The notes below the pieces were generated by a model, which worked only from the letters and a program-made list of their open reading frames with translations, made no database searches and was not told the origin of the DNA. The position numbers were made by a program, and so were the translations under genes. From assembly GCA_942493095.1 (NCBI GenBank), contig OW818675.1, forward strand, positions 2,910,001 to 2,942,000: 32,000 nucleotides of DNA. The letters run 5' to 3'. This DNA is from Candidatus Electronema halotolerans (GTDB taxonomy: Bacteria; Desulfobacterota; Desulfobulbia; Desulfobulbales; Desulfobulbaceae). Every line of letters begins with the position of its first letter. Within the stretch, counting starts at the first letter, position 1. Positions 48 through 28,355 of the stretch are shown one piece after another.

Positions 48-638
48 ATGGAGCGGATCGGGCTGTTCGGCGGCACCTTTGACCCAGTGCATTGCGGCCA
101 TCTGGCGATTGCCGAGCAGGCTGCGGAAGAACTGCGGCTCGCCCAGATGCTCTTCATCCCGGCTCCTGATCCGCCTCATAAGCGAAAGACGACAGCGACT
201 TACGGGCAGCGGGTCGCCATGCTGGAGCTGGCCTTGGCCGACCATGATCGCTTCAGCGTCTCCCTGCTGGAGTCTGAGCTGCCCAAACCTTCCTACACGG
301 CTGACACCCTGCTGGAGCTGCGCAAGCGTCTGGCCGGGCAGTTTTATTTCCTCATTGGTGCGGATTCGTTGCTGGAGCTGCACCTCTGGAACCGCTTTCA
401 GGATTTGCTCAAGCTGACCAAATTCATCGTCATTTCACGGCCCGGCATTCCGCTGCCAGCCATGCGGCAGGCGATGGAGCGGCTGCCCGGTAATTTTGTT
501 CCGCTCGTCAACCGGCTGAAGGAGGATGTTTCATCCACTGCGATTCGGGCGCAGTTGCGGCTGGGCGAAAAAACAGAGCTATTGGATAGGCGGGTGGTAG
601 GGTATATTGAGCGGGAGAGGTTGTATAAATCTGTCTGA
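48..638 (+). CDS. nadD: nicotinate-nucleotide adenylyltransferase
   Basis: 196 aa. The N-terminal GLFGGTFDPVHCGHL motif (nucleotidyltransferase (H/T)xGH) and the C-terminal SSTAIR motif are typical of NadD. Confidence 0.9.
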   Translation: MERIGLFGGTFDPVHCGHLAIAEQAAEELRLAQMLFIPAPDPPHKRKTTATYGQRVAMLELALADHDRFSVSLLESELPKPSYTADTLLELRKRLAGQFYFLIGADSLLELHLWNRFQDLLKLTKFIVISRPGIPLPAMRQAMERLPGNFVPLVNRLKEDVSSTAIRAQLRLGEKTELLDRRVVGYIERERLYKSV

Positions 639-665
639 CAAAAAACAGTCATCTTAATGCAGTAG

Positions 666-1859
666 ATGGAGAATGAAAGAATAATGGGTAAAACTTTTAA
701 AAACAGCGGCGGAGAACAGAACATCGCTCAAGGTGACTATGCTATCGGCAGACAGATAAACACCTTTGGTATCCCTCCAGAAATCTTTGAAAAGTATGCG
801 ACGAAGCTCGCTGTTACAGAATCTGCTTTAAGCAGTTTCTTCAAAACATTAGGAATAAAACAGGTTTCCCTTGACGATATAGATGGCAAATTACGTGAAA
901 TTGCAGCTAATCATAAAGAACTATTGCAAAAATTACAGAATAACGCAGCAGAGTTATCAAAAAAATCAGAAGGTGCAGATATGAGTTCAAATTTGATTTA
1001 TATTGAAATATCAATGAAAGATGCGGAGTTGTATCAGGAGGCGTATGAGATACTGCTCAACAAGCTCGTTGAATGGAATGAAATAGCTATCAATAATGGA
1101 GCATCTAAAGCTCCATATGAATATGAAGTAAAGCGATTGCCAATCATAGTTAATTTTTTTAAGAAAAAAATTGCGTCAGGGAGTTATTTTATCACTGATA
1201 GAGTTAGCGAAGAGACCTTGCGTCTCAAAAAATCAGCTCTTCTTTGTGCTGCACATCAACATGAACAGCAGCTCCTCGAAAAATCAAAGAATGGCTGGCC
1301 ACCAGCAGTGATAGAGGCGGCTAAGGAGAAATCCAGAAGATTCAAAGAGCTTGCCGATAAGATTAAATATGATCTTCCAGAAAATTTGGCAGATATTCTG
1401 CCAAGATCAAATGTAACCGTTAATGATCATCATATCCGAGGCAAGGACTGGGAATGGGATGCGTTTATCAGCCACGCATGGGAGGATAAGGAAAATTTTG
1501 TTGCATCACTTGCTGCTGCTTTAGAGGAACAGGGCTTGAAAATATGGTACGACGAGTCAGTACTTAAAGTTGGTGATAGCCTCAGACGCTCCATAGATAA
1601 TGGATTGTCAAAATCAAGATATGGGATTGTTGTGTTAAGTCATTCTTTTTTGAAAAAAGAGTGGCCACAAAAAGAACTTGATGGGATATTCGCAAAAGAG
1701 CGGAATGGGATAAAAGTGCTGCTGCCGATATGGCATAATATTTCTTCAGAAGATATTGAAAAATTTTCGCCTATGCTGGCTGATCGTCTGGCAGTTTCAT
1801 CCAGCAAAGGACTTCCTCATGTCGTTGAGCAATTGTTGAGTGCGATTCAGCAATCGTAA
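666..1859 (+). CDS. TIR-domain protein with an uncharacterised ~260-aa N-terminal region (candidate defence/NADase effector)
   Basis: The C-terminal ~130 aa read WDAFISHAWEDKENFV..LKIWYDE..GDSL..SRYGIVVLSHSFLKKEWPQKELDG, which are classic bacterial TIR boxes including the W..E glutamate position. The gene is visibly AT-rich compared with both flanks. The start could instead be the ATG at 684, which follows a GGAG at 669-672. Confidence 0.85.
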   Translation: MENERIMGKTFKNSGGEQNIAQGDYAIGRQINTFGIPPEIFEKYATKLAVTESALSSFFKTLGIKQVSLDDIDGKLREIAANHKELLQKLQNNAAELSKKSEGADMSSNLIYIEISMKDAELYQEAYEILLNKLVEWNEIAINNGASKAPYEYEVKRLPIIVNFFKKKIASGSYFITDRVSEETLRLKKSALLCAAHQHEQQLLEKSKNGWPPAVIEAAKEKSRRFKELADKIKYDLPENLADILPRSNVTVNDHHIRGKDWEWDAFISHAWEDKENFVASLAAALEEQGLKIWYDESVLKVGDSLRRSIDNGLSKSRYGIVVLSHSFLKKEWPQKELDGIFAKERNGIKVLLPIWHNISSEDIEKFSPMLADRLAVSSSKGLPHVVEQLLSAIQQS

Positions 1860-2133
1860 GATTGATCGAGCGCGGCAATTTTTCGACTGCCGAAAAACGG
1901 CGGCAATACCGGCAACTCGTGGAAAAAGTCGCTAATGCCGCCGCCTTAAAGCAGGAATTTCAGCGAAAACTCAAAAACGTTGAACAGAGCCTTGCTGCGG
2001 AGAGAAACAGCCCTTGAGCTGCATTGAAGCATCTTGATTTCTGTCCGCAGCCCGTGGCATCCAGCAAAAAAAACGATGCCTTGATATCGCATCATCCGTA
2101 TTAGCCAAGATGATGCGGCAGGGTTCATGCACT

Positions 2134-2850
2134 TCATCCTTGAAGGCGGAAAGACAAGCATTCCATCCACACCATCAATTCTCCCAGCGCGGTCGAGGCC
2201 AGCAAATACGGCTCCTGATGCAGCGTGGCCCGGAGCTGCGTTTCTGCCAGCAGCTTGGACAATGACCATGAGGCCGGATTTTCCTCCGGCGCGGGCAGGA
2301 ACTCATTGACATGACCCCAGAGATGCTGCACAGCATTCCTCAGCCCGCCGATGCTGGGCGGCTGGCGGAGCAGCTCACTGAGCTGGCGGGACAGAGCGGC
2401 AAAGTCGGCCTTGCCGCTGGCTGTTTCCCGGCCAATAGCTTTATACAACTGCACATCACGGGCCAGCACGGAATACTTGTGCTGGCTCCAGAGCTGCTGG
2501 GCATGGCGCGGCAAGGGAATCCGGCCCGGCTCACGATCCGCATATTTAGTCCCAAGCAGCTCGAACTGAGCTGCCGGTTCATCAAGATAAAGCGCAGGCC
2601 ATGCCTCGCTGCCGGGCGGCACTGCGACTGGCGACTGCTCCTTGTAGCCGCGCAAGGTCATTTCGCAGGCAAGCTGCTGGTGCCGCCAGGCCAGAGCTGG
2701 CAGGCAGTCTGCCCAGCGCAGGGTTTCCGGGTGCCGGGCATAGCCTTTCTTTTTATTGAGCAGAATTGAGATGATGGCATGCAGCTCCCGGTGCTCGCCC
2801 AGCAGACTCTGCCGGTTGAGATAACCGGGGCTGATGTCCCAAATCCTCAT
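2134..2850 (-). CDS. pyrimidine dimer DNA glycosylase / endonuclease V (Pyr_excise)-like N-terminal domain protein
   Basis: From the internal ATG at 2850 the product starts MRIWDISPGYLNRQSLLGEHRELHAI..KKKGYARHPETLRW, matching the T4 DenV-like family signature (L..EHrEL). This ATG overlaps the upstream gene's TGA (ATGA at 2847-2850). The C-terminal ~130 aa are not recognised. Confidence 0.6.
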   Translation of the reverse strand: MRIWDISPGYLNRQSLLGEHRELHAIISILLNKKKGYARHPETLRWADCLPALAWRHQQLACEMTLRGYKEQSPVAVPPGSEAWPALYLDEPAAQFELLGTKYADREPGRIPLPRHAQQLWSQHKYSVLARDVQLYKAIGRETASGKADFAALSRQLSELLRQPPSIGGLRNAVQHLWGHVNEFLPAPEENPASWSLSKLLAETQLRATLHQEPYLLASTALGELMVWMECLSFRLQG

Positions 2851-4760
2851 GCGCTGCCGTCTGCGCCGGGCAGCCTGCTCCGGCAGGCCGCGAGAATATG
2901 CCCCAGCATCTGGCTGTAGGAAATGCCCTGCAAGGCCGCCATCTTGGCCAAATGGCCGTCCCAGCACCAGCCCGGATTGGGGTTGACCTCCAGCAGCCGG
3001 GGCGTGCCGTTGTCGTCAATGCGCCAGTCAAAACGGGCGTAATCGCGGCAACTGAGCCGTTCAAAGAGCTTGACGCAGCTTGCTCCAAGAAAGCGCTCCA
3101 CATCCTCGGACAGATTGGCCGGAATTGATTTGATTTTCCAGTAGGGCGAACTGGGGTCCCATTTGGCCTCATAGCCGCATAAGCGCGGCAGTCCTTCTGG
3201 CAGGGCCGAGTAATCCTCCTCAATCACCGGCAGAATCATGTACGAGCTGCCCGGATTGCCGATAATGCCGACGCTGATGTCCTTGCCAGTGAGAAACGCC
3301 TCCACCAAAATCGGGTTATTGTAGCCGAACTTGTCCCGGATGCCGGTCACTGCGCTTTCCAAGGCTTGCAGATCATGGCAGACATTGGCTTGGGTGATGC
3401 CAAAGCTGGAGTCGCCGAAGTTGGGCTTGACAATCACGGGAAAGTTGAGCGGAAACTCAATGAACTGAATATCTTCCGGCTTGATCATGAAGGCCGGGGG
3501 CACAGGGATGTCCATTTCCTTGGCAATGCCCCGGATCAGCGACTTGTCGTAGCAATAGGCCAGACACTGGGGATTGCCGCCGGAATAGTGCAAGCCAAGC
3601 ATTTCCAGCAGGGCCGGGACATGCAGCTCCTTGAGGGCCTCGTTCTGAAAGCCCTCGTCGCAGAGATTGAAGACATAGCTGCATTTGCCTTGCAGCCTGC
3701 TCAAGTCCTGAATCAGGGTGTCGTGCCGGTCCAAATAGGTGAAGGTGCAGCCCGGCAGCTCGGCCAGAGCCTTTTTCAGCTGGTTGATGGTGTGGAAGTC
3801 GTCCTCATCAAAGCTGCTGCCCGGCTTGACCGCATCGCTCTTGCCCGGATCGCCGAGCAGGACAACCACGGCATCTGTCCTGTCCGCTTTCTTCTCGACC
3901 ACGGTCCATGCTTTTTCAGCGCAGGCCGTGACCACCACCCGCTGGGCCATCATGCCCAAGTCCTGATTCCGCTTTGATTCGGCAGCAACTTGGGAACAGC
4001 AGCAGCAGGCTGTGAAACCGGCCTTGGTCAGCAGCTGCTCAAGATCATTGCGCGAATAGAGCCGCTCGGCATAGAACTGATCGGCAATCACGCCCTTGCT
4101 GACATGGGTGATCACCTCTCTGGAAACCAGCCGCTCCCCATTCTCGGACAGCGAGCGTTCCCGGCAGACAAAGTAGTTCTTGTCGATCCATTCCCAGCTC
4201 CGGGCCTCAAAATGCGCCCGCATGTAGTCGCCGTCCGTGATGTCGATCAGCAGCTTGCCGCTGGGCCGCAGCACCCGCAGCACTTCTTTGAGAATGCGGT
4301 CGTCGTCCTTGCTCGAATCAAAATAGCCAAAGCTGTTGCCTGCGATCAGCACTGCCTCAAAGCTGTCAGGAGCAAAGGGCAGCCTGCGGGCATCGCCCTC
4401 TTTGAAGGCCACATTCAGGCCCCTGCCTTTGGCCACCTTGCGTGCCCGGCTGATCAGATAATGGGAGCGGTCCAAGCCGCTGACATTGCTCCAGCCCCGG
4501 CTGGCAATTTCCAGCGCATGGCGGCCCTGGCCGCAGCAGAGGTCAAGGATGCGGCTCTCCTTGGGCAAATTAAGAGCGGCAAGATAGATGTCGGTCTCGT
4601 TCTGGGTGATGTCGCTGTCCTCCACCACGTCGCCGTCCGTGCGCAGATAGTTGGCATTGAACAGATGCCGCCACCAGTCCGCCTTGACATAGCTTTCCAG
4701 ATTGTCAACCGGCCCCAGCACCTCGACGATCTTTCTGTTCTTCTTGTTCGATTTTGACAT
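2847..4760 (-). CDS. fusion protein: class I SAM-dependent methyltransferase (N-terminal) + D-Ala-D-Ala-ligase-like ATP-grasp domain (C-terminal)
   Basis: Start chosen at ATG 4760 (MSKSNKK...), preceded by GGAAG. The methyltransferase motif I is ILDLCCGQGRHALEIA and the post-I motif is FKEGDARRLPF. The C-terminal half carries FPVIVKPNFGDSSFGI, ILVEAFLTGKDISVG and LLEVNPNPGW, typical of the Ddl/ATP-grasp fold. Confidence 0.8.
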   Translation of the reverse strand: MSKSNKKNRKIVEVLGPVDNLESYVKADWWRHLFNANYLRTDGDVVEDSDITQNETDIYLAALNLPKESRILDLCCGQGRHALEIASRGWSNVSGLDRSHYLISRARKVAKGRGLNVAFKEGDARRLPFAPDSFEAVLIAGNSFGYFDSSKDDDRILKEVLRVLRPSGKLLIDITDGDYMRAHFEARSWEWIDKNYFVCRERSLSENGERLVSREVITHVSKGVIADQFYAERLYSRNDLEQLLTKAGFTACCCCSQVAAESKRNQDLGMMAQRVVVTACAEKAWTVVEKKADRTDAVVVLLGDPGKSDAVKPGSSFDEDDFHTINQLKKALAELPGCTFTYLDRHDTLIQDLSRLQGKCSYVFNLCDEGFQNEALKELHVPALLEMLGLHYSGGNPQCLAYCYDKSLIRGIAKEMDIPVPPAFMIKPEDIQFIEFPLNFPVIVKPNFGDSSFGITQANVCHDLQALESAVTGIRDKFGYNNPILVEAFLTGKDISVGIIGNPGSSYMILPVIEEDYSALPEGLPRLCGYEAKWDPSSPYWKIKSIPANLSEDVERFLGASCVKLFERLSCRDYARFDWRIDDNGTPRLLEVNPNPGWCWDGHLAKMAALQGISYSQMLGHILAACRSRLPGADGSA

Positions 4761-4948
4761 TTTCTTCGCTTCCTGTAAGATGAGCTGCGCAAGGATGGGA
4801 AAACGCGGCTTCAGCCCTCCGCAGCAGAGGAGGGCGGCCAAGATCGTCTTTTCCTTTACACCACAAACGCGCTGTCAGCGAGCAAAATTCCGAGCGGATC
4901 GCATTTTCCGTCCAGCCTGCTGCCAGCCCTGCGCAACAGCACAGAATC

Positions 4949-5671: not shown

Positions 5672-7561
5672 TCACCAGAACCATTTTATTTCAAGGGAAA
5701 CCTTGCTTTCTTCAGCCTCACGCTGCTCCAGTCCGGCAAACACGGAGAGCTGTCTTGACAGGCCCCACTGCATTTCCGCGCCAAGAAAAGGTTCGGCATC
5801 ACCCTGATAATCAGCCGTTTCTAATCCAGCCAGCAGGCGGGTCTTGAGATTTCCCGTTCCAGCCAGCAGGGCCGCATGAGGCCGGAGACGGAAATACGGC
5901 TCCAAGCTGTGCGCTGCCGCATCAGTCATCAGATAAGCAGTCAGCTGCGGGCTGATCTTCCATGCCCTGCCGACTCCAAAGGCAAAGAGCGCATCATAAT
6001 CACCGTCCTCTTGGATAAGACCGCTGTGGAGCTGCCACGACCAAGGGCTGTCCTCCTCAAGGGCCAAGGTGCTGGTTTTAATTTTCCGAATGCGTATTAT
6101 ATCTAACCGGTCGAGAAACAAGCTGTCCTCTTTGCCGCCCACGCCGACAGCCGTATCCAAGATGGCCAGCTCATCCCCCTCCAAGGTATTGCGTCCCAAG
6201 GTTTCTTGAATAAACGGTGCCCAGCGCAGGCGCAAATGCGCTCCCTGCCCATGTTCGTAACCGAAACCAAGGCTGGTCAGCATGGGGCGGTTGCCTGCGG
6301 CAGGAGAGTCCAGCGCAGGCGGCTCCTCCACTGCCGCGCTGCTCGGCGGGAGGAGAAAACGGGCAGGCAGAAGCTGCTTTTTCATGGCCTTGGTCGCCGG
6401 GCTGGGATTAGGCTGTTCAGCAGTGAGCCGGTAATTGGCATAGGCCAGCAGGGTGTCCAAGACTTCGGCCTGCCGCTCTGGCTTCAGTCCAGCCAGTTCT
6501 GCCGCCATCGCCTTTGGCCCTTGCTGGATGACCTTTTCCGCAGCCGCCTGTTCGTCTGGCTTGAGCAGACTGAACTGATGGTGCAGCCGCCGCTGGGCTG
6601 AGGGAATGAAGCGCACCGTGCTGATCAGGCCCGGCTGACCCGCAGCTTTTTCAGCATGGTCAATGTCTTCAAGACGATGAAAGATTTCCACTGGCGCGCA
6701 CCAGACCTTGGCATGTTGCAGGAGCGGCTCGTCAATGACTAATTCCAGCAGCTCGGCCAGTCGGTAGGCGCAGTTTTTGTCGAGGAAATAATACGTGAAT
6801 TTCTTGCCCAGAATCTCCCAGAGATGAAGCACCAAAAAGGTGCGCTGCTCGTCAGAAAGGCGCAGCTCATAATCCCAGATGTCGCGGAACTCGGTCCGGG
6901 AATACACCAAATCCTGGGTGTAGAAATAGCGGTCTGAGAATCCGGCCTGATAGCCGCCGCCCAAGCCGTGGAGAATGTAGCGCAGGACTGGCTCATCCTT
7001 CGGCACCAAGGCACCGTAACTGACGGTCAGATCAAAAAGTCCGGCCTGATCATCCCGCGCCCCGGCATTGAGCTTGAGCAGGGCGTGACCAAACACAGAT
7101 GCCGGATTGCCAAGATAGCCGCTGACTAAAAAGAGACTGACTGATTTGACCTTGTCCGGCAGGGACCAGCGGACAAAAGTCTTGCATTGCGGCGGCGCAG
7201 GCGTGTATTCTGGCAACTTGATGTGCTGGGAAAGCCAGAAATAGCGGGCCGGAAAGCGGCAGCGGGCATGACTGTCGCCGTCCTTGGGCCACGGCGCAGT
7301 GTAGGCGGCAATAGTGGCGGCCAGTTCGGCCTTGGCATTGTGACGGCCTTCAGGGGCGAGGAAAAAGTCCTTGCTCAGGATTTCGCTCTGTTGCGCCTTG
7401 CGGTCAAAATGGAGCAGCTTGCGCCAAGTCGGATGCTGGGCGAGCTGTTCAAGCTGCGCTGGACTGAGCAGGGAATTTGCCGTTGCTGAACAGAAAAGCG
7501 GGCAGAGGAGGGCATAAAAAAAACAGGCAGCCTGAAGCCGCAAAAGGGGAGAAATGCGCAT
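5672..7561 (-). CDS. DUF4105 (Lnb N-terminal-like) domain-containing exported protein
   Basis: 629 aa with an N-terminal signal-like segment (LLCPLFCSATA). The block VSLFLVSGYLGNPASVFGHALLKLN...YGA...YFLDKNCAY resembles the DUF4105 core. The C-terminal third looks beta-rich and outer-membrane-like. Confidence 0.55.
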   Translation of the reverse strand: MRISPLLRLQAACFFYALLCPLFCSATANSLLSPAQLEQLAQHPTWRKLLHFDRKAQQSEILSKDFFLAPEGRHNAKAELAATIAAYTAPWPKDGDSHARCRFPARYFWLSQHIKLPEYTPAPPQCKTFVRWSLPDKVKSVSLFLVSGYLGNPASVFGHALLKLNAGARDDQAGLFDLTVSYGALVPKDEPVLRYILHGLGGGYQAGFSDRYFYTQDLVYSRTEFRDIWDYELRLSDEQRTFLVLHLWEILGKKFTYYFLDKNCAYRLAELLELVIDEPLLQHAKVWCAPVEIFHRLEDIDHAEKAAGQPGLISTVRFIPSAQRRLHHQFSLLKPDEQAAAEKVIQQGPKAMAAELAGLKPERQAEVLDTLLAYANYRLTAEQPNPSPATKAMKKQLLPARFLLPPSSAAVEEPPALDSPAAGNRPMLTSLGFGYEHGQGAHLRLRWAPFIQETLGRNTLEGDELAILDTAVGVGGKEDSLFLDRLDIIRIRKIKTSTLALEEDSPWSWQLHSGLIQEDGDYDALFAFGVGRAWKISPQLTAYLMTDAAAHSLEPYFRLRPHAALLAGTGNLKTRLLAGLETADYQGDAEPFLGAEMQWGLSRQLSVFAGLEQREAEESKVSLEIKWFW

Positions 7562-7576
7562 CTGGCTGCCGATCAG

Positions 7577-7603
7577 AAAAAAACAGGCGCAGCTGCGCGC
7601 CTG
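7577..7603 (-). terminator. rho-independent terminator/attenuator between the DUF3015-like and DUF4105 genes
   Basis: On the minus strand the 7-bp stem CAGGCGC-GCAGCT-GCGCCTG is followed by T7. It lies 10 nt after the upstream stop and ends 15 nt before the ATG of the downstream gene. Confidence 0.6.
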
Positions 7604-7612
7604 CGGATAATT

Positions 7613-8098
7613 TCAGCTCCTGCTCTCCGGCTGCCGGAAGACCAGATTGTACAGATTCTCGGCCTTCTCAAAACGGCTCTGATCAGCATACTCTGCCGCT
7701 GCCACTGAATTGGCAAAATCCCTGCGCAGTCCGGCAGCAAAAGAGGCTTTGCCCTCTTCGTTCACCCCGGCCAGCGCGGCCAGCGAATCCAAATACTCGC
7801 CCTGACCCCGCGCCAGATCAGCCTCCAGCGGCTCGTAGGCATTGTTGATGAATGCAGCTGCCAGAGCCTGACCGCCTTGGCAGGTCTCTGGCGAGGAGAC
7901 GTTGGAAATGATGGCAGTGGTGCCAAGGTCAAAGGTGACATTGGTCACTGCCGCAACTGCCGGGGTGCGGGGGGCAATGAGCGCGCCCAGACCGCAGTCC
8001 GTGTAGATGTCAGCAAATTCTCTGGCAGCGGCAGTCTGGGCCAAAGCCAATGAGGCGGCAAAGACCAAGGTGATGGTTTTCATGTTTTTTCCAAGCAT
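7613..8098 (-). CDS. DUF3015-like small secreted protein
   Basis: Start taken at ATG 8098 (AAGGAG lies 10 nt upstream); ATG 8083 is an alternative. The signal peptide is MKTITLVFAASLALAQTAAA. The motifs DCGLGA...TNVT..LGTT and ARGQGEYLDSLAAL match my recollection of DUF3015. This family is often adjacent to DUF4105 genes. Confidence 0.5.
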   Translation of the reverse strand: MLGKNMKTITLVFAASLALAQTAAAREFADIYTDCGLGALIAPRTPAVAAVTNVTFDLGTTAIISNVSSPETCQGGQALAAAFINNAYEPLEADLARGQGEYLDSLAALAGVNEEGKASFAAGLRRDFANSVAAAEYADQSRFEKAENLYNLVFRQPESRS

Positions 8099-8398
8099 AG
8101 TGTTGTGTCTCCTTGCGGTTCTGTTTGCGGAAAGCCAGTCGTTGCGGCTTTCCCTGCGGCTCTGCAAAAAACTCCTCATTTCAGCTTACTCATGGAAAAG
8201 GTGCTTGTCAACAGCAGATTCTGCTTCAGCTTTCTAATTATTTATCGTATTATAATAATGAAATCAGAGAGTTTCTCTGCGAAACAGCAAAGCTGAGACC
8301 CTGCTGCTTGCGGCACATTGTAAAAATCACTTCACTTCAATTTGATACGCCGCCCTTTTCTTAGGGACAGGGCGGCGGATTCAGTGAGGAGGGCAGGC

Positions 8399-9286
8399 AT
8401 GAACAGAAAGATTTTAGTCGCAGTTGATGGTTCCGTACACAGCTCCAGCTGTCTTGACTATTTGATCCGGCTTTTCCGCAATGATCAGGACTTCCATGTT
8501 GATCTGCTCGCCGTGGTTTCGGCGTATGCTGCCACGCCTGTCCAGATAGAAGAACGCCGGAAGCGATTCTGCAGCTATCTTCAAGATGCCAATAACCGCC
8601 TGCTGCGCAACGGCTTCAGCGAGGAACGGCTTTCCTGCTCTGTCAGCACAGGGGCTTTTGGGATCGCCGCCTCCATTCATCAGCATCTGCTGCGCGGCAA
8701 ACACGACAGCCTGCTGATCGGGCGGCGGGGCATGGGCCGGATCGGCGAGCTGCTGCTGGGCAGCGTCTCAGCAGAGCTGCTCCCCCGCTGTCACGAAACA
8801 CCGATCTGGCTGTTAGACGGCAATGTCGCTTCAAACCGCTTCCTGCTCGCCGTCAACAGCAGTCCCAGCTCGCTCTTGGCTGCGGATCATCTGTCATTCA
8901 TCCTCAGCGGCTGCCCGGACACTGAAATTTTTCTCTATCATTCTTATGCCTTGTTCGGTTCCGCCCCTGCCGCGCCGCTGGAGGATTTTGAGCGGCAGTG
9001 GGGCGCGACCTGGTGCGCCAAGCATCTGGATTTTGACACCTGCCTCTATCAGGCCCACACCAAAATTCTTTTGGACAACGGGATTGAGAAGCGGCAGATC
9101 ACGCCGGTCCTGCCGCATCGAGATTTTGAGGTCGGGCATGACCTGCTCCGGCAGGCGGAACGGCATGGCTGCGGCACCATTGTCGCAGGCCGCCGGGGCG
9201 CGGATGCAACTAAGGGCCTGCTCGGCGGGGTCTCGGACCGGATGGTGCGGCAGGCGGAAAACTTGGCCATCTGGATTGTCGGCTGA
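8399..9286 (+). CDS. universal stress protein, tandem Usp domains
   Basis: Start at ATG 8399 after GAGGAGG. KILVAVDGSVHSSSCLDY opens the first domain and RFLLAVNSSPSS the second. G.RG..G...LLGSV motifs occur twice (IGRRGMGRIGELLLGSV, AGRRGADATKGLLGGVS). Confidence 0.8.
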   Translation: MNRKILVAVDGSVHSSSCLDYLIRLFRNDQDFHVDLLAVVSAYAATPVQIEERRKRFCSYLQDANNRLLRNGFSEERLSCSVSTGAFGIAASIHQHLLRGKHDSLLIGRRGMGRIGELLLGSVSAELLPRCHETPIWLLDGNVASNRFLLAVNSSPSSLLAADHLSFILSGCPDTEIFLYHSYALFGSAPAAPLEDFERQWGATWCAKHLDFDTCLYQAHTKILLDNGIEKRQITPVLPHRDFEVGHDLLRQAERHGCGTIVAGRRGADATKGLLGGVSDRMVRQAENLAIWIVG

Positions 9287-24594: not shown

Positions 24595-24670
24595 GGGTCG
24601 TTAACTCAGCCGGTAGAGTATCTGCCTTTTAAGCAGAGAGTCGCGCGTTCGAATCGCGCACGACCCACCA
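24595..24670 (+). tRNA. tRNA-Lys (anticodon TTT)
   Basis: GGGTCGTTAACTCAGCCGGTAGAGTATCTGCCTTTTAAGCAGAGAGTCGCGCGTTCGAATCGCGCACGACCCACCA forms a cloverleaf with anticodon loop CTTTTAA, T-loop TTCGAAT and encoded CCA. Confidence 0.92.
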
Positions 24671-24683
24671 TTGTGCATTACTG

Positions 24684-24758
24684 GTCCCCATCGTCTAGTC
24701 AGGTCCAGGACATCGGCCTTTCACGCCGACAACACCGGTTCAAATCCGGTTGGGGACG
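24684..24758 (+). tRNA. tRNA-Glu (anticodon TTC)
   Basis: GTCCCCATCGTCTAGTCAGGTCCAGGACATCGGCCTTTCACGCCGACAACACCGGTTCAAATCCGGTTGGGGACG has acceptor GTCCCCA/TGGGGAC, anticodon loop CTTTCAC and T-loop TTCAAAT. CCA is not encoded. Confidence 0.9.
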
Positions 24759-24770
24759 CAAGAAATAATA

Positions 24771-24806
24771 AGGGGTCAGCTTATCAAGCTGACCCCTTTC
24801 TTCGTT
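24771..24806 (+). terminator. rho-independent terminator after the tRNA pair
   Basis: AGGGGTCAGCTT-ATCA-AGCTGACCCCT is followed by TTCTTCGTTT. Confidence 0.75.
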
Positions 24807-25162
24807 TCTGGAGGGCGTTTGAAGACCTTGGCCGCTGTTTCTCTCAAGCCGGTGAAAACGCCTTTCGGCATCAAAGATAGAATCACGGATGGCGTTTTTT
24901 CAGATGTCGCCTTCCTCTCTACGTGCTCAACGCCTTTCGGCATCAAAGATAGAATCACACCCAAGGCCCGGAAAATTCGGCAAGCTGCTTGGAGTGCTCA
25001 ACGCCTTTCGGCATCAAAGATAGAATCACGGACAATCGTCATTCCTGAAGATGGTTCCGGCGGGTGCTCAACGCCTTTCGGCATCAAAGATAGAATCACA
25101 CGGCCCGCAGATCGGCCTGTCCTCCAAGTTTGTGTGCTCAACGCCTTTCGGCATCAAAGATA

Positions 25163-25288
25163 TAGCGGTTACACGCCGAATGGTGATCACCCTGATATAT
25201 TGATGCTTAATTTAACTTGTTGAATTTATACATACAAAACTTTTGACAAAGCAAAGATATTTGATAGCCGTTCAACCCATAACCGCTA
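25163..25288 (+). mobile_element. 126-bp MITE-like non-autonomous element, copy 1, inserted in CRISPR repeat 5
   Basis: Repeat 5 is split as ...CATCAAAGATA | element | TAGAATCAC. TA is duplicated at 25161-25162 and 25289-25290. The termini are TAGCGGTTA...TAACCGCTA (9-bp perfect inverted repeat, about 27 bp imperfect). The core is AT-rich and has no ORF. Confidence 0.85.
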
Positions 25289-25720
25289 TAGAATCACAAC
25301 ACTTGGCCAAGAAGATACATAAAACCGTCATGTGCTCAACGCCTTTCGGCATCAAAGATAGAATCACAAGATCATGACCGCAGACCGCAAAACAGTCCAA
25401 ACGTGCTCAACGCCTTTCGGCATCAAAGATAGAATCACCGACCACAGGCACGAGAACATGCAGCCAACGATCTATTGCTCAACGCCTTTCGGCATCAAAG
25501 ATAGAATCACTTGTTCTTCCGCCGACAATAGCAACGATCAGCATGATTGCTCAACGCCTTTCGGCATCAAAGATAGAATCACGTACAATCGGCTTGCCAA
25601 AGGCAGGCGGTTAATGCAGGGTGCTCAACGCCTTTCGGCATCAAAGATAGAATCACAGGAGCCTTGAAATCAATATGCTCCAATTGAAAATGTGCTCAAC
25701 GCCTTTCGGCATCAAAGATA

Positions 25721-25846
25721 TAGCGGTTATGGGTTGAACGGCTATCAAATATCTTTGCTTTGTCAAAAGTTTTGTATGTATAAATTCAACAAGTTAAATT
25801 AAGCATCAATATATCAGGGTGATCACCATTCGGCGTGTAACCGCTA
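25721..25846 (-). mobile_element. 126-bp MITE-like element, copy 2 (exact reverse complement of copy 1), inserted in CRISPR repeat 11
   Basis: Base-by-base comparison by hand shows 25721-25846 equals the reverse complement of 25163-25288. The insertion point within the repeat is the same, with TA duplicated at 25719-25720 and 25847-25848. Confidence 0.85.
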
Positions 25847-26464
25847 TAGAATCACGAGCAGTTGCTTTGGATTCAGTGGGGTCAATGGGTGGTGCTCAAC
25901 GCCTTTCGGCATCAAAGATAGAATCACGGGGCAAAGAAAAAAATCTTCGATGCTTCCATGAAAGTGCTCAACGCCTTTCGGCATCAAAGATAGAATCACA
26001 TCCTCAACAGCGCGGAGATGCTGTCGAGGTAGTGTGCTCAACGCCTTTCGGCATCAAAGATAGAATCACTCACGCTCTGACTCAACCTGCGCGTACATCC
26101 TCATAGTGCTCAACGCCTTTCGGCATCAAAGATAGAATCACGCCTTTCGCTGGCGATCACTGAGCCAAGAATAGGGGTGCTCAACGCCTTTCGGCATCAA
26201 AGATAGAATCACGTAATCTTGTAGCCTGCTCCGGCATGGTTATCAAGTGCTCAACGCCTTTCGGCATCAAAGATAGAATCACAGTACTCCCTGTTTTGCT
26301 GACATCTGCTCCAGTGAGTGCTCAACGCCTTTCGGCATCAAAGATAGAATCACTACCACAAACTCTTTCAGGTACTCAGCACAGCAAAGTGCTCAACGCC
26401 TTTCGGCATCAAAGATAGAATCACGCGCCCTTGTCTGTGGTAGGTTACGCCTACGCTGTGTGCT

Positions 26465-27352
26465 GGTAATGGTGAATCGTGAGTGATGGGTTGAAAATAT
26501 GTTGAAATTGATGGAAAATATAATATACTGGCGGCAAGGGATGCTCTCTGTCCCATCGGCTCTTCGTCGGATGCGCATGTCAAGCCGTCATTATGAAAAA
26601 AACAAACATGGAGAAGAAAGCTGTGCAATGCCCAAGATGTGGTTCATCAGTCATTGTGAAAAATGGCTCCAATGCGAATGGGAAAAAGAAATTTTTATGT
26701 AAGGACTGCTCACGTCAATTCGTTGAGAATCCTCAGAACAAAACAATATCTGATGCTGAATGGCGCATAGTTGATAAGCTTCTTGTTGAAAGAATCTCAT
26801 TGGCTGGGATTGCGAGAGCCGTTTCCATCTCAAAAAGATGGCTTCAGGAATATGTTAAAAAAAAACGAAATGAAGTCAAAAAAGAGGCTTTCAATATGTC
26901 CCGCAACGGAAAAATCTTCATCGAAGCCGATGAAATGTGGACTTTCGTTGGTGACAAGGAAAATGATATTTGGATATGGCTTGCTATCGAGAGAAGAACA
27001 AAGCTTATTGTCGGGTATCATGTTGGAAAAAGAGATAATGCAGGAGCAGCCGCCTTGTGGGACTCCCTTTCTGAAGATTGCAAAAAGAACGGAATATTTT
27101 TTACGGATGGACTCGCCGCTTATTCGAGCGTGTTTCCAGCTGAAAGGCATAGAATTGTCAGCAAAGGAAGCGGAAAAACAAGTCATATCGAAAGGCTCAA
27201 TTTGACATTCAGACAAAGATTGTCTGCACTTGTCAGAAAGACCATTTCATTTTCGAGAAGCATCGAAAATTTAACTGCATCTGTCTGGAGGTTCATTCAA
27301 GATTATAATAATAATCTTTTGTTTAATTGATCACTCACAGTTCACCATCACC
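26465..27352 (+). mobile_element. IS1-family insertion sequence (888 bp) inserted in CRISPR repeat 20
   Basis: The terminal inverted repeats are GGTAATGGTGAATCGTGAGTGAT (left) and GGTGATGGTGAACTGTGAGTGAT (right, reverse complement), which start GGT(A/G)ATG as in IS1. The 7-bp direct repeat GTGTGCT flanks it at 26458-26464 and 27353-27359. It contains a single transposase ORF. Confidence 0.9.
26593..27330 (+). CDS. IS1-family transposase (fused InsA-InsB type, single ORF)
   Basis: It has an N-terminal zinc finger (CPRCGSS...CKDC), an HTH-like region (ISLAGIARAVSISKRWL) and a DDE-domain block (FIEADEMWTFVGDKENDIWIWLAIER...FFTDGLAAY...KTSHIERLNLTFRQRL). The stop codon lies in the right inverted repeat. 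Confidence 0.88.
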   Translation: MKKTNMEKKAVQCPRCGSSVIVKNGSNANGKKKFLCKDCSRQFVENPQNKTISDAEWRIVDKLLVERISLAGIARAVSISKRWLQEYVKKKRNEVKKEAFNMSRNGKIFIEADEMWTFVGDKENDIWIWLAIERRTKLIVGYHVGKRDNAGAAALWDSLSEDCKKNGIFFTDGLAAYSSVFPAERHRIVSKGSGKTSHIERLNLTFRQRLSALVRKTISFSRSIENLTASVWRFIQDYNNNLLFN

Positions 27353-28355
27353 GTGTGCTCAACGCCTTTCGGCATCAAAGATAGAATCACATGCTGCACC
27401 TGCGGGAAGCTGTACATGGAACCGGTGCTCAACGCCTTTCGGCATCAAAGATAGAATCACCGTTACAAGACGGCTAATCAAGTCTGCTGACTCAGGTGCT
27501 CAACGCCTTTCGGCATCAAAGATAGAATCACAAGCCCCAAGGCGCGTTTGTGAGAATAGTTATCAATTGCTCAACGCCTTTCGGCATCAAAGATAGAATC
27601 ACTTGGTTGACTGGATTAAAAATAACAGGTATTCTGTTTGCTCAACGCCTTTCGGCATCAAAGATAGAATCACAAAGGTAGAGGGCAACCGATCAAAGGA
27701 AAAAACTTTTGCTCAACGCCTTTCGGCATCAAAGATAGAATCACAGCCCTTCCTGCAGCCCTCTGCTGACGGGCTGCGCAGCACGACAAATCAAGCTGGC
27801 CTGCTGTTCTGTTTCCGCTGCTTGCAAAACAAGCAATTCTTTCCACCCTCCTTTTGCTCAGGTTAATGATTTCAGATGAAAAAATCCACATTCAAGCACC
27901 TGCTGCCCCTGTCGGCGGTCAAAATCAGCCGCAGCCGCAGCACCTTGCCGCCGCTGCCTGCAACCGTGCTGATACTATCATGAATATCCATGAATTGGCA
28001 AGCGGATATTTATATCAGGCTGCTGAATTTTTGGTATTCTCCCTCTTGAGAATTGCTAAATAATTGTTTATCCTTCTGTGTCTGTCAACCTCTTTCTTAA
28101 AGAGCAGCATGGTTGTTATCGGGAAACAACACGCAACAGGGTGACGAGCAGCAATTCCTCCCGAAAAAAATTCATGCCGTCACACACCACAAGGCTTCGC
28201 GCTGAAGGTGATCAGCATTCAGCCTCTATGAATAGGCAGCAAGTTGGGTTACAATAAAAATCACAAAGCGACACTGACCACTTTCTACCGGGCGGCTCAC
28301 AGCTTGTCTGTCTGTCTGCCTGTTTGGATGAACACTGCCTGCCACAGGAGAAAAC

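Follow-up and report, generated by a model that had tools for sequence, protein, structure and literature searches.

At the 3' end of nadD in a 32,000-nucleotide stretch of bacterial DNA, analyzed here as a whole and referred to as the window, we identified a cassette of about 1.4 kb that was acquired horizontally. It encodes a protein in which a TIR domain follows a conserved N-terminal domain, together with a short, conserved open reading frame. Judged from domain architecture and from the genes that surround members of this family, the cassette is plausibly a stand-alone anti-phage or suicide system. The more specific proposal, that it encodes a stand-alone, cytoplasmic, SpbK-like sensor-TIR NADase acting in abortive infection, has, in our estimate, roughly even chances of being correct. 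The features on which the argument turns are the following.

48-638, forward strand: nadD, nicotinate-nucleotide adenylyltransferase (Pfam CTP_transf_like, E 1e-27), the flank and apparent insertion target
639-2027, no strand assigned: AT-rich foreign cassette with the TIR gene and a small ORF, delimited by composition and DNA identity with orthologous loci
666-1859, forward strand: TIR-protein gene, 397 aa from the ATG at 666, stop codon 1857-1859
666-980, forward strand: N-terminal extension, residues 1-105, a disordered G/Q/N-rich start followed by two helices
981-1406, forward strand: conserved N-domain, residues 106-247, compact α/β with the order β-α-α-β-α-α
1407-1451, forward strand: flexible linker, residues 248-262, pLDDT <50 for residues 248-259
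1452-1856, forward strand: TIR domain, residues 263-397, of the AbTir/PdTIR/TcpB/BtTir clade
1662-1664, forward strand: codon of W333, the predicted cyclisation Trp, aligned with AbTir W204
1674-1676, forward strand: codon of E337, the predicted catalytic Glu, aligned with AbTir E208
1862-2017, forward strand: conserved small ORF, 51 aa, TTG start, product basic and probably helical

The composition of the cassette sets it apart from its surroundings. At 0.402, its GC content is lower than that of every other stretch of the same size in the 32 kb (0.539±0.040, minimum 0.425), a deviation of the kind that characterizes genomic islands, and its GC3 is 0.34, compared with 0.72 in nadD and 0.76 in the citrate synthase gene. 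Across the TIR gene, GC ranges from 0.32 to 0.43 against 0.58-0.62 in the flanks, in agreement with the AT-rich gene among GC-rich neighbors reported in the preliminary description of this DNA. The cassette is 84% identical at the DNA level to positions 7785-9144 of one orthologous locus, L002, and 76-78% identical to two others, L184 and L185. Because homology with these loci stops at 2001-2027, the foreign block reaches about 2027, and not 1861 as originally proposed (639-1861); nor is it a single-gene island, given that the second ORF, at 1862-2017, is under purifying selection.

On the left side, the ORF that starts at 666 begins 28 nt after the end of nadD, so that both the insertion after this gene and the size of the gap stand as first described. 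The order of nadD followed by the TIR gene is the same in L002, L184, and L185, and the DNA between the two genes varies among the loci, with a Phd/PIN toxin-antitoxin pair occupying this position in L002. In L002/L003 and L184, the last ~120 nt of nadD recur in degenerate form 3' of the cassette, and in L185 a shorter piece of the 3' end of nadD is found there; in the window itself, no second copy was detected. The conjunction of deviant composition, degenerate nadD copies in three related loci, and variable content between nadD and the TIR gene bears out the earlier suggestion of horizontal acquisition. None of the four orthologous loci has a recombinase or integrase in the interval from nadD to the right end, and a nadD scan of metagenome contigs yielded, among the matches listed, only relatives with at most 47% identity and no empty site. 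The Rfam search detected no RNA element in the cassette or its vicinity, and a consensus scan for a promoter or terminator of its own gave no more than chance.

Lying 28 nt after nadD and without a consensus promoter of its own, the TIR gene may be expressed constitutively with a gene of NAD synthesis, a situation that would also fit a metabolic or an addiction role. The metabolic version, in which the protein would serve NAD or RNA metabolism in connection with nadD, for instance by deNADding RNA or tuning the NAD+ pool, draws on the fact that the TIR gene follows nadD in all four orthologous loci and on the stripping of nicotinamide from NAD-capped RNA by AbTir-clade TIRs in vitro, as stated in a published study (PMC10937652). 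We consider it very unlikely: the adjacency to nadD is missing in eight other family contexts, and the foreign composition of the cassette, together with the duplicated nadD 3' end behind it, points to the choice of an insertion site rather than to an operon.

The TIR domain, correctly placed at the C-terminus in the preliminary description, is not novel but a member of the extensively studied PdTIR/AbTir/TcpB clade. Residues 267-360 match Pfam TIR_2 with an E-value of 4e-20 (72.9 bits, cut-off 28), and the Pfam TIR model scores 44.7 bits (cut-off 21.3), which places the domain in the TIR superfamily. It is 48-54% identical to PdTIR, AbTir, BtTir, and TcpB (phmmer, Foldseek; 52-54% with Foldseek), with phmmer E-values from 4e-43 to 1e-39 for the clade, as against only ~1e-7 for the next-best TIRs, those of plants and Cat1, and its AlphaFold2 (AF2) model superimposes on TIR crystal structures with TM scores of 0.86-0.91 (Foldseek). 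The motif KKEWPQKELDG, in which a catalytic glutamate had been suspected from the outset, contains W333-x3-E337, that is, a WxxxE signature with a numbering offset of 129 relative to AbTir. The suspicion proved well founded, with E337 aligning with the catalytic E208 of AbTir, and W333, K331, G303-D304-S305, and W356 match AbTir W204, K202, G174-S176, and W227, respectively. In AbTir, the E208A mutant is inactive and W204A loses cyclisation; more generally, mutating the matched residues abolishes NADase activity or cyclisation. The aligned catalytic-site residues are invariant or nearly so among 81 family members, and the whole domain shows a dN/dS of 0.09 relative to its L002 orthologue. With the catalytic Glu, the cyclisation Trp, and the BB-loop all retained, the domain is predicted to be catalytically competent.

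Work on the AbTir/PdTIR/TcpB clade has largely treated its members as virulence factors or model enzymes, and, for AbTir, PdTLP, and TcpB, we found no demonstration of a phage phenotype in the literature, which tells against the anti-phage reading. Given the ~50% identity to the TcpB/BtpA TIR domain, the protein could be imagined as a virulence factor of the Tcp type, acting by mimicry of host TLR adaptors in the way suggested for TcpB/BtpA and TcpC. Such a role appears scarcely credible, considering that inspection of the N-terminus reveals neither an obvious secretion signal nor an obvious region for membrane binding and that the N-domain is unrelated to the N-terminal regions of Tcp proteins. 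Furthermore, given the cytochrome c7 and NrfD-type genes in the DNA of the host and the environmental metagenomes from which the homologues derive, we infer that the host is an environmental anaerobe.

The preliminary description had treated some 260 N-terminal residues as a single novel region, probably helical and with a G/Q/N-rich start, that matched nothing recognizable. The helices and the disordered start are indeed seen in the AF2 model and the lack of database matches persists, but the region consists of two modules, residues 1-105 and 106-247, and the second of these is no orphan, being the conserved module of a small family of ~175 clusters. In the model, a globular N-domain is joined through a disordered linker to the TIR domain, as expected from the sensor-plus-effector layout that had been proposed.

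The first module, the extension, has pLDDT values of 29-38 in residues 1-30 and of 65-84 in its two helices. The likelier start of the protein is the ATG at 684, with GGAG 11 nt upstream, which yields the 391-aa form reported by gene callers (our entry P0001 is this form). The extension is translated, to judge from a dN/dS of 0.16 relative to L002 and from the codon-position bias of the differences (16, 17, and 43 at positions 1, 2, and 3). It is present in the window, L001, L002/L003, and L184 and absent in L185, where the gene begins at the N-domain and is preceded by its own AAGGAA Shine-Dalgarno sequence. There were no matches to the extension in Pfam, NCBIfam, PADLOC, or PHROGs, and a tblastn search against 185 loci recovered it in orthologues only. 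The 105-aa extension is specific to this lineage and optional, and nothing comparable occurs in other family members, a point against the SpbK-like proposal.

The second module, the N-domain, is predicted with high confidence (pLDDT about 96-98) and carries the conserved residues W137-N138, G145-A146, P150-Y151, E154, R186, and W211-P212. It matched nothing in Pfam, NCBIfam, PADLOC, or PHROGs, in Pfam even at E<=10. Foldseek, a check proposed in the preliminary description, returned no match for the N-domain at E<0.2 in PDB or BFVD. A profile search recovered the 175 clusters among 1.84 billion representatives, and, in the 56 members that were scanned, the C-terminal partners are TIR in 30 and Ymh-HEPN in 11, with single fusions to PNP, KAP NTPase, and AAA_15. 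The HEPN family Ymh occurs in Abi-type architectures, and across this range of partners the N-domain acts as a portable module at the N-terminus of conflict effectors. Scans of viral contigs and PLSDB plasmids recovered no member of the N-domain family, only TIR-only relatives, a result that speaks against the SpbK-like proposal. Among the latter are proteins annotated as DUF1883, matched over the TIR part.

Between these modules and the TIR domain, the linker is the least conserved segment of the protein in the comparison with L002. Amino acid identity with the L002 orthologue is 72-73% in the putative sensor part and 95% in the TIR domain, so that the putative sensor evolves faster than the effector.

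The second gene of the cassette starts 2 nt after the stop codon of the TIR gene, in another frame, and its peptide is conserved in all four orthologous loci (the window, L002, L184, and L185). In five of the six pairwise comparisons, dN/dS is 0.07-0.14 (dS 0.45-1.9), and it is 0.35 for the closely related pair of L184 and L185, a pattern indicative of purifying selection. The possibility that this ORF is a frameshift extension of the TIR protein was rejected because its frame has a stop codon, TGA, at 1826-1828; by eye, no slippery heptamer was seen in 1829-1861. Searches of Pfam and other profile libraries gave no family match for the product, which is probably an accessory regulator or a neutralizer. 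One could view the whole as a toxin-antitoxin or addiction cassette, in which the 51-aa product keeps the TIR NADase in check and which mainly stabilizes the island, with or without a contribution to phage defense. The strong purifying selection on the small ORF, its apparent translational coupling to the TIR gene, in L184 with an ATGA overlap between its start and the TIR stop codon, and the frequent proximity of family members to toxin-antitoxin modules are all compatible with such an arrangement. However, the ORF is limited to this lineage and was not found beside other members of the N-domain family, it lies downstream of the putative toxin, its start codon varies (TTG here, CTG in L002, ATG in L184), and, in L184, it carries a frameshifting 5-nt insertion. 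On balance, an addiction cassette seems unlikely. Somewhat easier to entertain, although still tentative, is a broader interpretation, in which the N-domain would be a new portable infection-sensing module that serves TIR, Ymh-HEPN, PNP, and KAP-NTPase effectors, and the cassette would be a two-gene system, with an NADase that bears the extension and is gated by the coupled 51-aa peptide.

In the window, the neighbors of the TIR gene are nadD, the small ORF, and a Pyr_excise/DUF1722 gene. This is a housekeeping neighborhood and not a defense island, which counts against the anti-phage interpretation. Elsewhere in the family, the surroundings are of the mobile and defense type and include HicB, Phd/PIN, AbiEi/AbiEii, integrases, IS elements, giant SIR2_2 proteins, and a second TIR. 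In a comparison of ten family contexts (the window and nine others), none of the neighboring genes is conserved as a partner, and, as in the preliminary description, no ThsA, STING, or CBASS partner was found in any of them. Two loci encode SIR2_2 proteins (866 and 1264 aa) several genes away from the TIR gene; ThsA, at ~480 aa, is far smaller.

These contexts also bear on the scenario of an orphan signal generator, that is, a ThsB without its ThsA, whose TIR domain makes 2'cADPR or another ADPR isomer for a remote receptor of the SLOG, Macro, or other type. Its nearest relatives of solved structure act as efficient 2'cADPR cyclases, the Trp required for cyclisation is present here as well, and the ThsB1 model of PADLOC matches the TIR part with E 2e-38. 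One report (PMC11204291) adds that 2'cADPR activates some ThsA proteins, though weakly. Nevertheless, no ThsA-like gene adjoins any of the ten family members or occurs in the 32-kb window, and HEPN and PNP, both directly toxic effectors, occur as fusion partners of this N-domain, which argues for self-contained sensor-effector logic; accordingly, we regard a remote receptor as quite unlikely.

If, instead, the protein is a self-contained sensor-TIR NADase, as we favor, its mode of action can be sketched on the model of SpbK and AbTir. In resting cells, the TIR domains would be held in an inactive arrangement. Recognition of an infection-derived protein or ligand by the N-domain would cause the protein to cluster, whereupon the TIR domains would stack head-to-tail, forming composite active sites that convert NAD+ to nicotinamide and 2'cADPR/ADPR. 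The ensuing loss of NAD+ would stop growth and abort the infection.

What distinguishes this protein is that a catalytic domain of the AbTir clade is joined to an undescribed compact N-terminal domain. HEPN, PNP, and KAP-NTPase effectors have this domain at their N-terminus as well, and its genomic companions are toxin-antitoxin modules, AbiE, integrases, and IS elements. If the N-domain is the module that recognizes the trigger, it would represent a new sensor fold for bacterial immunity and provide a tractable single-polypeptide system for understanding how 2'cADPR-type TIRs are switched on. Should the infection-sensing two-gene interpretation hold, the Abi-type systems would gain a new family, one that uses this new sensor fold. 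In either case, the 51-aa companion and the optional 105-aa extension are natural variants that could be used to dissect regulation.

Among known systems, AbTir, PdTLP (PdTIR), BtTir, and TcpB (BtpA) share with the window protein the TIR fold, the catalytic Glu, the WxxxE Trp, the BB-loop Gly/Ser, and the adenine-stacking Trp, and AbTir-type proteins are alike in size and order, with a ~150-aa N-terminal region followed by TIR. Outside the TIR domain, no sequence relation to them was detected. The N-terminal regions of the Acinetobacter AbTir-like ORFs and of PdTLP are K/E/Q-rich, low-complexity coiled coils, in contrast to the globular β-α-α-β-α-α domain and additional 105-aa extension found here; the coiled coil in PdTLP (P0121 in our set), whose structure founded the clade, rules out that it shares the N-domain.

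The PADLOC run that had been suggested gave PDC-S66 as the best match of the window protein (E 3.6e-63), in the TIR half only. The TIR part of the HMM spans roughly positions 120-280, to which the matches of most family members are confined, with P0011 and the window protein extending further toward the N-terminus. The alignment of the window protein covers positions 90-280 of the 282 in the HMM, and the other family members align from 57 to 266 (P0011) or, in the remaining four, from 113-136 to 266-280, whereas an Acinetobacter beijerinckii ORF covers positions 1-280 with E 2e-115. The HMM thus describes the AbTir type, coiled coil plus TIR, and the assignment of our gene to PDC-S66 was rejected. 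PDC-S66 is itself a candidate system that, in the literature searched, appears in genome-annotation lists only.

The AbiJ-NTD modules resemble the N-domain in being N-terminal domains of ~100-160 aa common to unrelated toxic C-terminal domains, Ymh-HEPN and TIR among them. Pfam has models for AbiJ_NTD3-5. The N-domain gave no Pfam match at E<=10, a comparison that takes in AbiJ_NTD and DUF3644 insofar as they are in the library, and none of the 56 members is fused to the HEPN domain of AbiJ (Abi_C). Modular N-terminal domains of this type in HEPN, TIR, and REase Abi proteins have been described by Anantharaman et al. 2013 (PMC3710099).

Thoeris ThsB, likewise an ADPR-cyclising TIR NADase and matched by the window TIR in the PADLOC comparison, belongs to a system that needs an adjacent ThsA (SIR2-SLOG or Macro/TM), which neither the window nor the related loci contain. 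According to Manik et al. (preprint), the TIR structures of AbTir and BtTir resemble each other more than they resemble BcThsB.

The closest parallel in layout is SpbK of the Bacillus subtilis element ICEBs1, likewise a single polypeptide with an N-terminal sensor, a flexible linker (~15-18 residues), and a C-terminal TIR NADase, carried by a mobile element and acting with no partner. [quoted passage not shown] In SpbK, binding of the portal by the N-terminal domain activates the NADase by clustering. The window protein has the same arrangement of a non-catalytic N-terminal domain, a flexible linker, and a TIR domain with no obligatory partner, as seen in the AF2 model and in the ten genomic contexts.

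The preliminary description of the TIR gene as AT-rich holds because both GC content and GC3 of the block at 639-2027 fall far outside the local range: GC is 0.402 versus 0.539±0.040 (minimum, 0.425) in windows of equal size from the rest of the 32 kb, and GC3 is 0.34 versus 0.72 in nadD and 0.76 in the citrate synthase gene. Along the DNA, GC is 0.58-0.61 in nadD, drops to 0.32-0.43 in the TIR open reading frame (ORF), and regains ~0.60 only past ~2100. The cassette and the gene preceding it are laid out as follows:

48-638, + strand: nadD (Pfam CTP_transf_like, E 1e-27)
666-1859, + strand: TIR-protein ORF, 397 aa, beginning 28 nt past nadD
1862-2017, + strand: small ORF, 51 codons, in a different frame, starting 2 nt past the TIR stop codon

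Public gene callers start the TIR gene at ATG 684, with GGAG 11 nt upstream, yielding a 391-aa form (P0001); residues are numbered here along the 397-aa form. The remainder of the window encodes housekeeping functions (citrate synthase, RNase III, carbamoyltransferase, cytochrome c7, NrfD), and these surroundings are not a defense island.

The protein matches Pfam TIR_2 at residues 267-360 (E 4e-20), and its best matches among PDB sequences (E 4e-43 to 1e-39) are PdTIR (3H16), AbTir (7UWG/7UXU/8G83), BtTir (7UXR), and TcpB/BtpA (4LZP/4LQC/4C7M), all remaining PDB TIRs scoring E 1e-7 or worse. The AlphaFold2 model, with pLDDT of 85-97 across most of the TIR domain, fits the PdTIR, AbTir, BtTir, and TcpB structures with TM 0.86-0.91 at 48-54% identity. 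The catalytic apparatus is intact: all functional residues defined in AbTir are retained, at a numbering offset of 129, and most are invariant across 81 members of the family of N-domain-TIR proteins. Thus, AbTir E208 (catalytic; E208A is dead) corresponds to E337, W204 (W204A loses 2'cADPR formation) to W333, K202 (diphosphate binding) to K331, the BB-loop G174-D175-S176 (G174A and S176A are inactive) to G303-D304-S305, and W227 (adenine contact) to W356. Sequence and structure thus both confirm the earlier placement of the NADase glutamate. The domain belongs to the best-characterized bacterial NADase clade (PdTIR/AbTir/BtTir/TcpB). That clade includes TcpB, and a Tcp-type virulence factor is among the rival readings, as the least likely of them.

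The N-terminus, previously taken as a single ~260-aa region, is two different things within its first 262 residues, an extension (1-105) and a distinct N-domain (106-247). Homologs, mostly ~300 aa long, begin at the position of M106 and align to residues ~107-397 only, with 40-48% identity. The N-domain is modeled as a compact β-α-α-β-α-α fold (pLDDT ~96-98) with the conserved motifs W137-N138, G145-A146, P150-Y151, E154, R186, and W211-P212. The claim that the N-terminus matches nothing recognized stands for the libraries: the N-domain found no family in Pfam or NCBIfam, permissive thresholds included, no match among PADLOC and PHROG models, and, in Foldseek searches of PDB and BFVD, nothing better than E 0.2. 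It does not stand for proteins at large: a profile search recovered the N-domain in 175 clusters, only a minute share of 1.84 billion representatives, almost always at the extreme N-terminus. The N-domain is modular, joined, among 56 longer members, to TIR in 30, to a Ymh (PF09509) HEPN domain in 11, and to PNP_UDP_1, a KAP NTPase, and an AAA_15 ATPase in one each. The N-domain-Ymh proteins (P0315, P0349, and nine others; ~330 aa, TIR absent) look like an uncatalogued Abi-type family; P0315 and P0349, the two scanned, had no match in PADLOC. Ymh is a HEPN family with Abi-like architectures. Searches of viral contigs and plasmids turned up no protein with the N-domain.

The cassette has orthologs in four independent loci, with DNA identity to the window of 98.9% (L001), 84% (L002/L003), 76% (L184), and 78% (L185). 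All share the order nadD, then TIR gene, with a Phd-antitoxin/PIN pair intervening in L002/L003. This pair, a Phd/YefM antitoxin gene and an overlapping PIN-like ORF (L002 7021-7747, same in L003), is absent from the window, and therefore the cargo of the post-nadD site varies. The downstream flank is ahcY-metK in L002/L003 versus a Pyr_excise/DUF1722 gene in the window. Past the cassette, L002/L003 and L184 carry the final ~120 nt of nadD a second time, degenerate and with the frame broken (partial in L185), the footprint that would be expected of insertion into the nadD 3' end. The window has no such copy, none of the four loci contains a recombinase, and no empty site was found among the nadD homologs listed from metagenome contigs, all of ≤47% identity. 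The window nadD lacks (at ~497-503) a ~17-aa segment (…DDAKQMHWQRADGAEFF…) present in nadD of L002 (6768-6828), L184, and L185.

Elsewhere in the window, a 664-aa protein (2847-4841, − strand) joins a SAM-methyltransferase to an ATP-grasp domain of the D-Ala-D-Ala-ligase type. Its match to PADLOC mad2 (E 8e-20) is confined to the methyltransferase part and is probably generic to that domain. Its listed ORF overlaps the Pyr_excise/DUF1722 ORF (2134-2967) by 121 nt, and therefore the start or extent of one of the two is probably mis-set. Two tRNA genes (24595-24667 and 24684-24758) lie just upstream of a CRISPR array (24849-27760; core GTGCTCAACGCCTTTCGGCATCAAAGATAGAATCAC, repeated at least 25 times with a period of ~71 nt), which is interrupted by an IS1-family transposase gene (26593-27330); none of the window's genes was identified as cas, and a listed ORF at 24750-25223 is probably an artifact of the array. 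Two perfectly complementary copies of a 130-nt element (25161-25290 and 25719-25848), each inside a CRISPR repeat and in opposite orientations, carry 29-nt terminal inverted repeats (TATAGCGGTTA...); the element looks like a MITE, and a 70%-identical copy occurs at L002 9261-9391, immediately past the remnant of the nadD 3' end, at the cassette edge.

Besides the window, only L001, L002/L003, and L184 have the extension. Compared with L002, its dN/dS of 0.16 and the dominance of third-position changes (16/17/43 by codon position) show that it is translated. In L185, which lacks it, the gene starts at the N-domain with its own AAGGAA ribosome-binding site; because AGGTG precedes ATG 981 (M106) by 5 nt in the window, a shorter isoform may be made there. 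In the model, the extension opens with a disordered stretch rich in G, Q, and N, after which come two helices predicted with moderate confidence. It has no relatives in Pfam, NCBIfam, PADLOC, or PHROGs, and tblastn of 185 loci finds orthologs only; a word-indexed protein search with 99 aa (684-980) gave 0 matches and missed P0001 itself, and carries no weight, negatives of this method being untrustworthy with short, compositionally biased queries. Between L002 and the window, the N-terminal parts (72-73% identity) diverge faster than the TIR domain (95%).

The small ORF is conserved in all orthologous loci, and therefore the cassette is not strictly the single-gene island first proposed. Five of six pairwise comparisons give a dN/dS of 0.07-0.14 (dS, 0.45-1.9), and the close L184/L185 pair gives 0.35. 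The start of the small ORF varies: L002 has CTG at the start position, L185 has an ATG 24 nt farther upstream, and the L184 ATG forms an ATGA with the TIR stop codon; L184 also carries an insertion of 5 nt. Family libraries (including PADLOC and PHROGs) gave no match. The small ORF is quite probably a real, lineage-specific companion gene. It could be the neutralizer in a toxin-antitoxin cassette, a rival reading to be set beside the observation that the small ORF was not found next to other family members.

Another rival reading links the gene, through its shared order with nadD, to NAD or NAD-capped RNA. In the 10 family contexts read, window included, the N-domain-TIR gene has no recurring neighbor. 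Beyond the Phd/PIN pair of L002, its neighbors include HicB (L100), divergent AbiEi/AbiEii with two integrases (L102), IS1595 and IS240 transposases (L101), an AAA_15/DUF4276 pair (L084), and, in Variovorax (L086), integrases, IS21, a SIR2_2 protein of 866 aa, and, 30 nt upstream, an HTH gene; L085 and L103 have plain housekeeping flanks. In L087, a second, different TIR gene (6991-7938; TIR_2 + Y4lF, 315 aa) lies 63 nt upstream of the N-domain-TIR gene, and the neighborhood, which also encodes an ADP-ribosylglycohydrolase and a SIR2_2 protein of 1264 aa, may be an NAD-centered defense cluster. Taken together, the family contexts are those of a mobile accessory gene that is self-contained.

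The best-supported reading is a stand-alone sensor-effector NADase, for which we infer enzymatic activity, trigger, activation mode, and any phage phenotype as follows. The N-domain would recognize a trigger and gather TIR domains, which would stack head-to-tail into composite active sites, as in AbTir filaments and SpbK on the phage portal; NAD+ would be cleaved, with 2'cADPR and nicotinamide as the probable products, and cell growth would stop. 2'cADPR is the product of the characterized clade members AbTir, BtTir, and TcpB, and a further rival reading is an orphan generator of this signal.

The likeness to PADLOC candidate system PDC-S66 was rejected as an identity: its model describes the AbTir architecture, matching an Acinetobacter ORF end to end (E 2e-115), and the family is matched mostly over the TIR half only (window protein, E 3.6e-63), although further N-terminally in the window protein and family member P0011 than in the others. 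AbTir-like proteins and PdTLP have K/E/Q-rich coiled-coil N-termini, to which the N-domain is unrelated. The pattern of one N-terminal domain across unrelated toxic C-terminal domains is that of the AbiJ-NTD domains (PMC3710099). The one-polypeptide sensor-linker-TIR plan of the window protein is already known from SpbK, the single-gene TIR abortive-infection protein of B. subtilis ICEBs1. Stand-alone TIR candidates are common, and the TIR clade of the window protein is already known; what is new is the N-domain, absent from every library searched and common to HEPN, PNP, and KAP effectors, together with the 105-aa extension, which is optional, and the small ORF coupled to the TIR gene. What the clade does natively is unsettled, and an unrecognized putative sensor module on an AbTir-type TIR is relevant to that question.
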